64,000 nucleotides of DNA from Escherichia coli (GCF_003334765.1 NZ_QOWT01000001.1), one strand, 5' to 3'. Positions 41,580-46,500 are shown, counted from the first letter of the stretch. Translations and numbers: made by a program. Notes: generated by a model from the letters alone, not told the origin.

Positions 41580-41716
41580 CGTGTAATGGCTGCATGAAAT
41601 AAACAATAAAATATAAATAACATTATCAGCCTGCTGACGGCTTGAAGAGAGTCACAGTATCTTGTGCAACATTATTGGAAAGAGTGAGGGGCGAGGTAGC
41701 GAAGCGGAAAAATGTT

Positions 41717-41822
41717 AAAAAAAAGCCCATCGTGGGAGATGGGCAAAGACTACACACAGCAATTCGTTGTTTCACTCAGGGGATTTCCATGCTTATAAAT
41801 CAATATGTTGATTTATAACCGT
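41717..41822 (-). ncRNA. rprA: RprA small regulatory RNA (RpoS translational activator)
   Basis: Reverse complement reads ACGGTTATAAATCAACATATTGATTTATAAGCATGGAAATCCCCTGAGTGAAACAACGAATTGCTGTGTGTAGTCTTTGCCCATCTCCCACGATGGGCTTTTTTTT, recognised as RprA including its terminator. Confidence 0.9.
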
Positions 41823-42007: not shown

Positions 42008-43120
42008 TTACTTATTCGGTTTCTCGATTTCGCCAAGTTCTTCGAGAATTTCTTCCGGTTGGTCCGTCGGCGGCGGGACTTCTTCCACCCACGCGGCAAA
42101 CAGACGCCAGGAAACGGCTAACAGAACCGGACCAATAAACAGACCGATCATCCCGAAAGCAATCAAACCACCAATAACGCCAGAGAGAATCAGGATCAGC
42201 GGTAAATCGGCACCCATGCGAATTAACATTGGGCGGATGACGTTATCCAGCGTGCCAACCACACCGCTCCACACTAACAATACCGTTCCCCAGGTGGTAT
42301 CGCCAGTCCAGTAGAGCCAGATAATCGCCGGAATCAGTACCGGCAACGGGCCAAGCTGGACAAGGCAGGAGAGGATCATTAACACCGTTAGCAACGTTGC
42401 ATAAGGTACGCCGGATACGGCGAGGCCGATACCGCCAAGCACTGCCTGTACTAACGCCGTCACCACCACACCCAGCGCCACCGCGCGGATAGCCTGTGCC
42501 GCCAGCAGCACGGCGGCATCTCCGCGAACGCCTGCCAGACGGGTTGCAAAATGGCGAATGCCTTGTGCCACCTGTTCACCGCGCCAGTACAGCAGGGCAC
42601 TGAAGAGAAGCATCAGCGCACAATGCACCATAAAGCGCCCGATATGCGCCGCCTGCCCAACGAACCAGGTGGTGGTGGTGCCAATATAAGGGCGGACTTT
42701 CGCCATGATCGCCGTCCCCCCCATATCCAGCAAGTTGTGCCAGCCTGCATACAGCTTCGCGCCAATCACCGGAATGGTATTAAGCCACGCCAGATCGGGT
42801 AACGTCATGTCACCGCTGGAAATGGCTTTAATTAGCGGGCCGCTGCCGTCGACGATACTGTTAACCAGCAAAGCAATAGGGATGATAAACACCATCACTA
42901 ATAACAGCGTCATCACCAGAACGGCGAGAGAGCGGCGGCCAAACATGATCTTTTGCAAACGTAACAATACCGGCCAGGTGGCGATAACCACCGTACCGGC
43001 CCATGCAAAGCCGAGAATAAAGGGTTGAACAATCCACAGACATGCCACAATCATGATGGCTAAAAACAGCACCGAAAGCAGAATTTGTGCGACATCCCTG
43101 GGCTGACGAACATTTACCAT
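42008..43120 (-). CDS. ydiK: AI-2E/UPF0118-family membrane transporter
   Basis: 370-aa polytopic ORF; SD AGGTGA upstream of ATG. Confidence 0.9.
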   Translation of the reverse strand: MVNVRQPRDVAQILLSVLFLAIMIVACLWIVQPFILGFAWAGTVVIATWPVLLRLQKIMFGRRSLAVLVMTLLLVMVFIIPIALLVNSIVDGSGPLIKAISSGDMTLPDLAWLNTIPVIGAKLYAGWHNLLDMGGTAIMAKVRPYIGTTTTWFVGQAAHIGRFMVHCALMLLFSALLYWRGEQVAQGIRHFATRLAGVRGDAAVLLAAQAIRAVALGVVVTALVQAVLGGIGLAVSGVPYATLLTVLMILSCLVQLGPLPVLIPAIIWLYWTGDTTWGTVLLVWSGVVGTLDNVIRPMLIRMGADLPLILILSGVIGGLIAFGMIGLFIGPVLLAVSWRLFAAWVEEVPPPTDQPEEILEELGEIEKPNK

Positions 43121-43508
43121 AACTACTTTTCACCTTTTTTGTGCGTCAAATCGTCGACGCGACGTGAACACGCGAAACTCACCTGCATAATGATGAGCAA
43201 TTTCAGCGGTTTTTAACAGGCCGATTCTGCCCTTAATTCTGATGGGCGTGTTAGAAAAAAATGTGGTACAACAACTCAGGCAACACGCAAACGATTTACT
43301 CGTCGTATTTCAAGTTGCATGTGCTGCGGCTACGTTCGTTCACCCCAGTCACTTACTATTGTAAGCTCCTGGAGTTCACTCGCTTGCCGCCTTCCTGCAA
43401 CACGAAATCCATAGAGTAAACAAACATCACCTTTCAGTGCGCTATTGCAGCAGCCTGAAAGAATAGTGTATCGACCTACATCACAGACCGCAGGAAAGGG
43501 TCAATATA

Positions 43509-46500
43509 ATGATTCCACAGATTTCCCAGGCACCCGGCGTCGTTCAACTGGTGCTTAATTTTTTGCAAGAGCTGGAGCAACAAGGTTTTACCGGCGATAC
43601 GGCGACAAGTTATGCCGATCGTCTGACAATGTCGACCGACAACAGTATTTACCAACTTCTCCCCGATGCGGTGGTATTTCCGCGTTCAACCGCAGATGTG
43701 GCGCTGATCGCCCGTCTTGCCGCGCAGGAACGCTATTCATCGCTGATCTTTACCCCCCGCGGCGGCGGCACCGGCACTAACGGTCAGGCGCTCAACCAGG
43801 GGATTATTGTTGATATGTCCCGCCATATGAACCGCATCATCGAAATTAACCCTGAAGAGGGCTGGGTGCGCGTTGAGGCCGGGGTGATAAAAGATCAACT
43901 CAATCAGTACCTGAAACCGTTCGGCTACTTTTTTGCGCCGGAACTTTCGACCAGCAACCGGGCAACGCTCGGTGGGATGATCAATACCGATGCATCCGGT
44001 CAGGGATCGCTGGTCTATGGCAAAACGTCAGATCACGTACTTGGCGTACGCGCGGTGTTGTTGGGGGGCGATATTCTCGATACGCAACCTTTACCCGTCG
44101 AATTGGCGGAAACGCTGGGTAAATCCAATACCACAATCGGGCGAATTTATAACACGGTTTATCAACGTTGCCGTCAGCAACGCCAGTTAATTATCGACAA
44201 CTTCCCCAAACTTAACCGCTTTCTTACCGGTTACGATCTGCGTCATGTCTTTAACGATGAGATGACCGAGTTCGACCTGACGCGCATTCTGACGGGTTCA
44301 GAAGGGACGCTGGCCTTTATTACCGAAGCGCGGCTGGATATTACACGCTTGCCTAAAGTGCGCCGTCTGGTGAACGTCAAATATGACTCTTTTGACTCTG
44401 CGCTGCGTAACGCGCCGTTTATGGTTGAGGCGCGGGCGCTTTCGGTAGAGACGGTGGACTCAAAAGTGCTGAATCTGGCGCGGGAAGATATTGTCTGGCA
44501 TTCCGTCAGCGAGTTGATTACCGATGTGCCTGACCAAGAGATGCTCGGGCTGAACATTGTGGAATTTGCTGGTGATGATGAGGCGCTGATTGATGAGCGG
44601 GTAAATGCACTCTGTGCGCGGTTGGATGAGCTGATCGCCAGTCATCAAGCAGGTGTCATCGGCTGGCAGGTGTGCCGTGAGCTGGCGGGGGTTGAACGTA
44701 TCTATGCAATGCGCAAAAAAGCCGTTGGTCTGCTTGGCAATGCCAAAGGTGCCGCTAAGCCAATTCCGTTTGCTGAGGATACCTGCGTACCGCCGGAACA
44801 CCTGGCGGATTATATTGCTGAATTTCGCGCGCTGCTCGACAGCCACGGCTTAAGCTACGGTATGTTCGGTCACGTCGACGCAGGTGTCTTGCACGTCCGT
44901 CCAGCGCTGGATATGTGCGATCCTCAACAAGAGATTTTGATGAAGCAAATCTCTGATGACGTGGTGGCGCTGACTGCGAAATACGGTGGTTTGTTGTGGG
45001 GCGAGCACGGCAAAGGTTTTCGCGCTGAATACAGCCCGGCGTTTTTCGGTGAGGAACTTTTTGCAGAACTGCGCAAAGTGAAAGCGGCATTTGACCCGCA
45101 TAACCGACTCAACCCAGGGAAGATTTGCCCGCCAGAAGGTCTCGATGCGCCGATGATGAAAGTGGACGCGGTGAAGCGCGGTACATTCGATCGGCAGATC
45201 CCCATTGCGGTACGCCAGCAGTGGCGCGGTGCGATGGAGTGTAACGGCAACGGTTTATGCTTCAACTTTGATGCCCGTAGTCCGATGTGTCCGTCGATGA
45301 AGATCACCCAGAACCGGATTCATTCACCGAAAGGGCGCGCAACGCTGGTGCGTGAATGGCTGCGTTTGTTGGCGGATCGCGGCGTTGATCCACTCAAACT
45401 GGAACAAGAACTGCCTGAATCCGGCGTCAGTTTGCGGACGTTAATTGCCCGCACGCGCAATAGCTGGCATGCGAATAAAGGCGAATATGACTTCTCACAC
45501 GAAGTCAAAGAGGCGATGTCGGGCTGTCTGGCCTGTAAAGCGTGTTCGACCCAGTGCCCCATCAAAATTGATGTGCCGGAGTTTCGCTCTCGTTTTCTGC
45601 AGCTCTATCACACCCGTTATTTACGCCCGCTGCGCGACCACCTCGTCGCTACGGTCGAGAGCTACGCGCCGCTGATGGCACGCGCGCCGAAAACCTTTAA
45701 CTTCTTCATTAACCAGCCGCTGGTGCGCAAACTCTCGGAAAAACATATCGGCATGGTTGATTTGCCGCTGCTGTCGGTCCCCTCGCTACAACAACAAATG
45801 GTGGGGCATCGCTCGGCAAACATGACGCTGGAACAGCTTGAATCTCTCAATGCAGAGCAGAAAGCGCGCACAGTGTTGGTGGTGCAGGACCCCTTTACCA
45901 GCTATTACGATGCGCAAGTGGTGGCGGATTTTGTCCGTCTGGTCGAAAAATTAGGTTTCCAGCCTGTGTTACTGCCATTTTCGCCAAATGGCAAAGCCCA
46001 GCATATTAAAGGTTTTCTTAATCGTTTTGCGAAGACGGCGAAAAAGACGGCGGATTTCCTCAACCGTATGGCGAAGCTGGGTATGCCAATGGTGGGCGTC
46101 GATCCGGCGCTGGTACTTTGTTATCGCGATGAATATAAACTGGCGCTGGGCGAGGAGCGTGGCGAGTTTAACGTCTTACTGGCGAATGAATGGCTGGCAA
46201 GCGCACTTGAGTCACAGCCAGTGGCTACAGTCAGCGGTGAATCATGGTATTTCTTTGGTCACTGTACCGAAGTTACCGCCTTGCCGGGTGCGCCAGCACA
46301 ATGGGCCGCGATATTTGCCCATTTTGGCGCGAAACTGGAAAATGTCAGCGTGGGTTGCTGCGGCATGGCAGGGACTTACGGACATGAAGCGAAAAACCAT
46401 GAAAATTCGCTCGGGATCTATGAGTTATCCTGGCATCAGGCTATGCAGCGACTGCCGCGTAACCGCTGTCTGGCGACCGGATATTCCTGCCGTAGCCAGG

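Follow-up and report, generated by a model that had tools for sequence, protein, structure and literature searches.

Results

Organization of the ydiK-ydiJ intergenic region

The window analyzed here is a 64,000-nucleotide stretch of Escherichia coli DNA in which ydiK, encoding an AI-2E family transporter, and ydiJ, encoding a D-2-hydroxyglutarate dehydrogenase, are annotated back to back on opposite strands (Table 1). The gap between the two genes is exactly 43121-43508 (388 bp), as given in an earlier reading made from the sequence alone (the sequence-only reading), and is 100% identical to that of E. coli K-12 MG1655 and many other strains. No annotation lies under the gap among the matched RefSeq E. 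coli records listed.

The sequence-only reading had also described the gap as unusually long, and for this locus that is the case. By scanning one genome per species with YdiK, we obtained 80 loci, of which 79 carry ydiJ divergently upstream. Orthologous gaps from these 79 related genomes have a median length of 213 bp (quartiles, 205 and 287 bp) and reach at least 388 bp in only 11.

We derived the anatomy of the gap by comparing a long E. coli allele (the one in the window), a short E. coli allele and outgroups, revealing two conserved blocks that flank a variable insert. The first block, of 176 bp, holds the mapped main start of ydiJ and that of ydiK and aligns over its entire length at 80-88% identity to Citrobacter and Salmonella and at 95-99% identity to other Escherichia species. 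The second, of 27 bp, carries the ydiJ ribosome-binding site and is 96-100% identical in Citrobacter and Salmonella. Conservation analysis, which had been proposed as a check on the sequence-only reading, therefore found sequence kept across genera at both ends of the gap and an Escherichia-specific insert in the middle, consisting of a 126-bp repeat element and a 61-bp unique segment.

Table 1 Features of the ydiK-ydiJ region and of ERIC copies at orthologous loci (window coordinates unless a locus is named; mapped 5' ends from PMC3415461).
Feature	Position	Strand	Details
ydiK	42008-43120	-	Annotated; AI-2E family transporter
ydiJ	43509-46565	+	Annotated; D-2-hydroxyglutarate dehydrogenase; ATG at 43509
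Conserved divergent-promoter block	43121-43296		176 bp; both the main ydiJ and the ydiK mapped starts inside
CGTCGACG palindrome, 8 bp	43152-43159		In putative ydiK leader
ydiK transcription start	43182	-	Genome 1767036; only 2 reads; 62-nt leader
Candidate ydiK promoter	-35 TTAAAA 43211-43216; -10 CATTAT 43187-43192	-	Start at 43182; block conserved in relatives
40-codon ATG frame, not a gene	43242-43364	+	Including stop
Main ydiJ promoter, extended -10	43264-43272	+	TGgTACAAC; start at 43280
Main ydiJ transcription start (G)	43280	+	Genome 1766938; 49 reads; 229-nt leader
ydiJ 5' untranslated leader	43280-43508	+	229 nt; holds PurR box, ERIC and 61-bp segment
PurR operator (predicted)	43285-43300	-	AGTAAATCGTTTGCGT; +6 to +21 of the ydiJ transcript
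ERIC/IRU/RU-1 miniature inverted-repeat element	43295-43420	+	126 bp; same orientation as published consensus
ydiK-assigned 5' end	43350	-	Inside ERIC; 3 reads
Single-copy segment	43421-43481	+	61 bp; always with ERIC in E. coli
Second ydiJ 5' end	43429	+	Genome 1766789; 25 reads; 80-nt leader; 9 nt past ERIC
Hairpin in 61-bp segment, 7-bp stem	43431-43437 with 43455-43461	+	CTTTCAG with CTGAAAG
Conserved ydiJ ribosome-binding block	43482-43508	+	27 bp; Shine-Dalgarno AGGAAAGGG at 43492-43500
ydiK-assigned 5' end	43637	-	Within ydiJ coding sequence, antisense; 4 reads
Variable site in orthologous gaps	Directly after ...ACGCAAACGATT		From alignment
ERIC, Enterobacter sp. JUb54 (L041)	2213-2341		Clean TA duplication versus empty site of L028
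ERIC, Enterobacter genomosp. O (L048)	2203-2328		Opposite orientation
ERICs, L050 (two copies)	2090-2215 and 2329-2456		One beside PurR box, one between ydiK start and promoter block

Transcription starts and promoters

Transcription starts were taken from Table S1 of Kim 2012 (PMC3415461), a single study under one growth condition (M9 glucose) in which 5' triphosphate ends were mapped by exonuclease (TEX)-enriched 5' RACE-seq. Genome positions (g) were converted to window positions (w) as w = 43509 + 1766709 - g, and the conversion was verified against the printed upstream sequences. These data place starts on both strands, including two for ydiJ (43280 and 43429) and a weak one for ydiK (43182). 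The remaining low-count minus-strand ends, one inside the repeat element and one within ydiJ, are probably noise.

The main ydiJ start is served by an extended -10 promoter whose motif, ATGTG[AG]TAnAnn, was found in 67 of the 79 orthologous gaps. On the other strand, we infer a weak ydiK promoter that lies outside the insert. A consensus scan for sigma-70 promoters returned none in the gap, and this result is uninformative because the mapped extended -10 promoter was missed as well. The Cappable-seq and Rend-seq supplements contain no entry for the ydiK-ydiJ locus, and Adams 2020 reports only a 3' end here, inside ydiK.

A perfect 7-bp inverted repeat, GCGTGTT (43246-43252) with AACACGC (43282-43288), brackets the ydiJ core promoter and start, with its right arm overlapping the PurR box described below. 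Inverted repeats of 7 bp number 2 in the region, compared to 0.62 expected.

An ERIC element in the ydiJ leader

The dominant feature of the gap, absent from the sequence-only reading, is an imperfect palindrome of 126 bp with 25-nt arms that are 76% complementary. It is a bona fide ERIC (also IRU or RU-1) element, as indicated by its identity to the consensus, its dispersal, its alignment with other copies, its match to the ERIC2 primer and a hairpin supported by compensatory changes. Elements of this kind are reportedly the subject of Sharples & Lloyd 1990, Hulton et al. 1991 and Wilson & Sharp 2006. According to two reviews, ERIC is a MITE-like repeat that was described in 1990-91 (PMC2229807, PMC3184786).

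Using the reference sequences in Table 1a of PMC2759123, we aligned the copy end to end with the 127-nt E. coli consensus (102/127 positions, 80.3% identity, with a single 1-nt deletion) and with SeRU-1 (108/127, 85.0%). It also aligns with E. coli copies at ubiV-yhbW, iscX-pepB, narK-narG and ybhI-ybhJ and with copies at five loci of other genera. The ERIC2 PCR primer finds a match at 2 mismatches, while ERIC1R has no match at up to 3 mismatches because of the 1-nt deletion. ERIC copies are present in all 5,426 of 5,426 complete E. coli genomes, at a median of 12 places per genome. When folded as RNA, the element reaches -39.2 kcal/mol on the plus strand (z = -4.4 versus shuffles) and -56.1 kcal/mol on the minus strand (z = -6.8), and compensatory changes are seen in 14 of 35 hairpin pairs across the 11 copies compared. 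Its termini read GATT-TAC...GTA-AAC, with an internal TA at both ends and TT and AA as the outer dinucleotides; no clean E. coli empty site was found.

Because the mapped start at 43280 precedes the element by 15 nt, ERIC is co-transcribed within the ydiJ leader, where it occupies +16 to +141 of the main transcript. The four other E. coli copies named above begin 8-10 nt past the upstream stop codon, between co-directional genes, and share one orientation relative to transcription, which is also that of the ydiJ-leader copy.

We folded 259 nt from the main start (229 nt of leader followed by 30 nt of ydiJ). Both the ERIC hairpin and the small CUUUCAG/CUGAAAG hairpin of the 61-bp segment form, and the centroid fold of this stretch contains no pairing between ERIC and the ydiJ Shine-Dalgarno sequence. 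A weak start-codon hairpin is found in the long leader, in the leader beginning at 43429 and in the short allele. Sequestration of the Shine-Dalgarno sequence by ERIC was considered and rejected, as the leader folds give no sign of it.

Long and short alleles

The 61-bp segment occurs once per genome in 4,256 E. coli genomes, which is the number that carry the long allele. The short allele, recognized by a match to the first 176 gap bases only, was found in 1,168 of 5,424 complete E. coli genomes (about 22%). ERIC together with the 61-bp segment also occurs in E. albertii, E. whittamii and a further Escherichia species. The insert is thus Escherichia-specific, polymorphic within E. coli and absent from most related genera, and it is therefore dispensable.

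The gap of one short-allele E. coli genome measures 213 bp, and relative to K-12 the 185 bp at 43297-43481 are replaced by 10 bp. Because 185 bp correspond to 10 bp and there is no clean empty site, the insertion history is not that of a simple, single ERIC transposition; the polymorphism may reflect an old polymorphism, recombination or deletion. The short allele, in which 10 bp (1677-1686 of L001) stand opposite 43297-43481, is colinear with Citrobacter, yet its flanks are about 100% E. coli.

The first 20 nt of the 61-bp segment resemble a 62-nt insert at the same site in Salmonella arizonae/diarizonae, with 0.3-1.3% of shuffles reaching the same score. Because of this resemblance, the segment may predate ERIC. 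Beyond these 20 nt there is no similarity to the Salmonella insert, and none was found to the inserts of Citrobacter.

A predicted PurR operator at the ydiJ start

We built a position weight matrix from 28 PurR operators in Cho 2011 (PMC3159470) and scanned the window (about 128,000 positions). The sequence AGTAAATCGTTTGCGT ranks first at 18.3 bits (random-sequence p about 5e-7), compared to 12.1 bits for the next best site, and falls within the range of the training sites (11.8-24.8 bits, median 20.0). In the same study, ChIP-chip for PurR gave a region (1766545-1767225; log2 ratio of 1.08 in the presence of adenine) that was attributed to ydiJ/ydiK, and no motif is given for this peak (PMC3159470). 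Converted to window coordinates, the peak covers 42993-43673, is about 680 bp wide and spans the predicted box.

A box of at least 12 bits recurs in 66 of the 79 relatives, placed as here about 24 nt past an ATGTGnTAnAA motif, and the proximal half-site CGTTTGCGT is nearly invariant among the orthologous gaps. Since box and extended -10 element are conserved at fixed spacing (66-67 of 79), PurR control of ydiJ looks ancestral. The earlier suggestion that the gap offers a regulator-binding platform therefore finds partial support in the ChIP-chip peak and the conserved, high-scoring box; the extra length, on the other hand, is ERIC plus the 61-bp segment and not regulatory space.

ERIC insertions beside the predicted operator

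Within the box, the distal half is rich in AT and includes the TA at which ERIC sits; in K-12 the six distal bases of the box (TTTACT, 43295-43300) overlap the ERIC terminus. Independent ERIC insertions are found 0-4 nt from the box in each of four lineages, namely Escherichia, Enterobacter sp. JUb54, Enterobacter genomosp. O and L050. Without and with the element, the operator scores 12.3 (short allele) and 18.4 bits in Escherichia, 18.3 and 10.6 bits in Enterobacter sp. JUb54, and 19.9 and 12.1 bits in Enterobacter genomosp. O. Because the effect on the score is inconsistent, the pattern fits an insertion hot spot in a tolerant leader better than it fits selection for an improved operator.

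The L050 sequence (CACSKA010000003.1) is titled Chryseobacterium sp. 18061, and its YdiK and YdiJ are 83% and 88% identical to those of E. coli and its ERICs are enterobacterial; the assembly is probably mislabelled or contaminated. Unrelated inserts are found at exactly the corresponding position of the leader, past the PurR box and ahead of the Shine-Dalgarno block, in Salmonella arizonae/diarizonae (62 nt; L016 and L019) and in Citrobacter (about 100 nt; L009, L022 and L023). Judged from these alignments, this position is a hot spot for indels in general.

Discussion

We interpret the ydiK-ydiJ gap, with high confidence, as a compact and conserved pair of back-to-back promoters that has been lengthened by insertion of a mobile element, ERIC, into the ydiJ leader beside a predicted PurR operator. 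Every kind of element in the gap is already known, and known in the K-12 genome itself, and the gap contains no hidden gene.

Two alternative readings follow from features singled out by the sequence-only reading, and both are extremely unlikely. One sees in the gap a small-protein gene that has escaped annotation, or else the gene of an independent small RNA. An ATG frame without a Shine-Dalgarno sequence does exist, although it has 40 codons rather than the 39 first counted and extends to 43364 with its stop; open frames are known from ERIC elements (PMC2759123), and a few low-count minus-strand 5' ends (43350 and 43637) could be taken as signs of transcription. The ATG, however, precedes the mapped ydiJ start by 38 nt and hence falls outside the transcript, codons 19-40 consist of ERIC sequence, the short allele cuts the frame off after 18 codons, and the canonical ERIC frame (Delihas, PMC2759123) is broken here by the 1-nt deletion. 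The idea of a small transcript fared no better: the gap has no terminator-like site and no annotation in the RefSeq records listed, and no Rfam family reaches threshold within it, with sub-threshold matches falling only on ERIC. The other reading takes two short repeats as protein-binding sites that explain the long gap. Both repeats are present, the perfect CGTCGACG palindrome one base away from where it had been placed (43152-43159, not 43151-43158) and the ctatt/aatag repeat at 43442-43446 and 43462-43466, but both occur at chance frequency. Shuffled versions of the region contain a mean of 1.5 palindromes of 8 bp and at least one in 78% of cases, and the window as a whole averages 1.25 per 388 bp, with 4 occurrences of CGTCGACG in the 64 kb; for five-bp inverted repeats, the count is 11 compared to 10.1 expected. 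Citrobacter and Salmonella read CGTTGACG at the CGTCGACG site, which is not palindromic, so that the palindrome is a single-base Escherichia peculiarity, and ctatt/aatag lies within the 61-bp segment that 22% of E. coli genomes lack.

The sub-threshold Rfam matches, to V_AS5 (a Vibrio antisense RNA, RF02818) and Ysr49 (a Yersinia sRNA, RF02766), cover 43299-43421 on the minus strand, exactly on ERIC, and score 36.9 versus 96 bits and 27 versus 95 bits. We rejected either identity for the gap sequence, as the matches are below threshold and reflect ERIC-like sequence; the two families may themselves have been built on ERIC-like repeats. The only family to pass in the scan was rprA (RF00034, 118.5 bits versus a gathering score of 70), at 41715-41822 on the minus strand, downstream of ydiK and outside the gap, and this is the real small RNA of the neighbourhood.

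Within the preferred reading of promoters lengthened by ERIC, PurR bound to hypoxanthine or guanine would repress ydiJ from just downstream of its start. A repressor at +6 to +21 would block early elongation or promoter escape, and purine control would thereby reach D-2-hydroxyglutarate dehydrogenase, an enzyme with a link to SerA and serine synthesis. Some characterised PurR operators, for example at purB and purR, are likewise located downstream of the start. ERIC itself would form a long hairpin within this leader. Given that the element is missing from a fifth of E. coli genomes and from most relatives, we consider it most likely to be a passenger that is tolerated and that affects mRNA stability or processing modestly at most.

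The 25-read 5' end just past ERIC is a hint that the element may have some activity, and this end is either a weak promoter or a processing product. The promoter version, which we consider a tentative possibility, holds that the right end of ERIC and adjoining sequence form a second, PurR-independent ydiJ promoter (P2), partly uncoupling ydiJ from PurR. It is consistent with detection of the end in a library enriched for triphosphate ends, with a TAAACA hexamer at -12 to -7 that has the critical -11 A, and with the distance to the PurR box, about 130 nt upstream, from where a repressor would be unable to block initiation. Yet the hexamers (TAAACA and CTGCAA, with a 16-nt spacer) are weak, at 3/6 each, the consensus scan gave no promoter-like site in the gap, and among the starts listed from the Kim 2012 table no other has an ERIC right arm upstream. 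The poor hexamers speak instead for the processing version, in which ERIC would be a working cis-regulatory RNA whose hairpin directs endonucleolytic processing of the leader, so that 43429 would mark a processed, differently stable ydiJ mRNA. This we regard as rather unlikely. RNase E prefers AU-rich sequence, and the context of 43429 (AUC/ACC) is unlike that preference. In favor of processing are the co-transcription of ERIC with ydiJ, the abundance of the second end (25 versus 49 reads) 9 nt 3' of the element, an orientation relative to transcription shared with the four other co-transcribed E. coli copies, and the analogy to Yersinia, where, according to reviews, ERICs co-transcribed with genes change mRNA stability in an orientation-dependent, RNase E-linked manner (PMC2229807, PMC3184786). 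Against it stand the exonuclease treatment of the Kim 2012 library, which is directed at processed ends, the lack of the element in 22% of E. coli genomes and in most relatives, and a ribosome-binding site that takes no part in the ERIC fold.

A further and more speculative proposal, which we think unlikely on present comparisons, is that ERIC inserts recurrently into the TA-rich distal half of the ydiJ PurR operator and that in Escherichia the ERIC terminus was co-opted as the distal half-site. If so, purine control of D-2-hydroxyglutarate dehydrogenase would not be the same with the long as with the short E. coli allele, and the locus would be a natural case of a MITE end rewiring a transcription-factor site.

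Most of what lies in the gap is not new: ERIC/IRU was described in 1990-91, the PurR ChIP-chip peak was published in 2011 and the ydiJ starts in 2012. What is mildly new is the placement of a predicted PurR operator under a peak published without a motif, together with the recurrent insertion of ERIC beside that box in several lineages, which marks the ydiJ leader as an apparent insertion hot spot. The analysis also removes a false lead, namely a small gene or regulatory platform, and the long and short alleles provide a natural pair that bears on whether an ERIC in a 5' leader alters expression.

Comparison with known systems

The predicted ydiJ box resembles the operators of the purine regulon, which are 16-bp palindromes of the form ACGNAAACGTTTGCNT, in its perfect proximal half-site CGTTTGCGT, its central CG and a score in the validated range. 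Like some characterised PurR operators, it overlaps the early transcribed region; it also lies under a broad ChIP-chip peak, one listed without a motif. It differs from other PurR operators in that terminal bases of ERIC make up part of the distal half-site, and repression of ydiJ is a prediction from the site and the peak.

The element shares with ERIC/IRU/RU-1 its length (126 versus 127 bp), identity to the consensus over the full length, terminal inverted repeats and a long imperfect hairpin, as well as an intergenic position, dispersal (about a dozen copies per E. coli genome) and co-transcription with a neighbouring gene. Unlike the four other E. coli copies compared, which are found just past a stop codon, it resides in a 5' leader between divergent genes. 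It further departs from the canonical element in its terminal TA dinucleotides (TA...TA in canonical flanks), which have drifted to TT and AA, and from the usual one in its reading frame, broken by the 1-nt deletion. In contrast to a clean ERIC insertion, it is accompanied by an extra 61-bp unique segment, and its presence/absence polymorphism is not clean.

Finally, Correia/NEMIS elements of Neisseria belong to a different family with unrelated sequences; promoter activity and processing by RNase III have been described for Correia and are hypothetical for the ydiJ-leader element. Like Correia/NEMIS and other leader MITEs, the ydiJ-leader ERIC is a small inverted repeat upstream of a gene that is transcribed into a hairpin, and it has a comparable potential to add promoters or processing sites (PMC2229807, PMC3184786).
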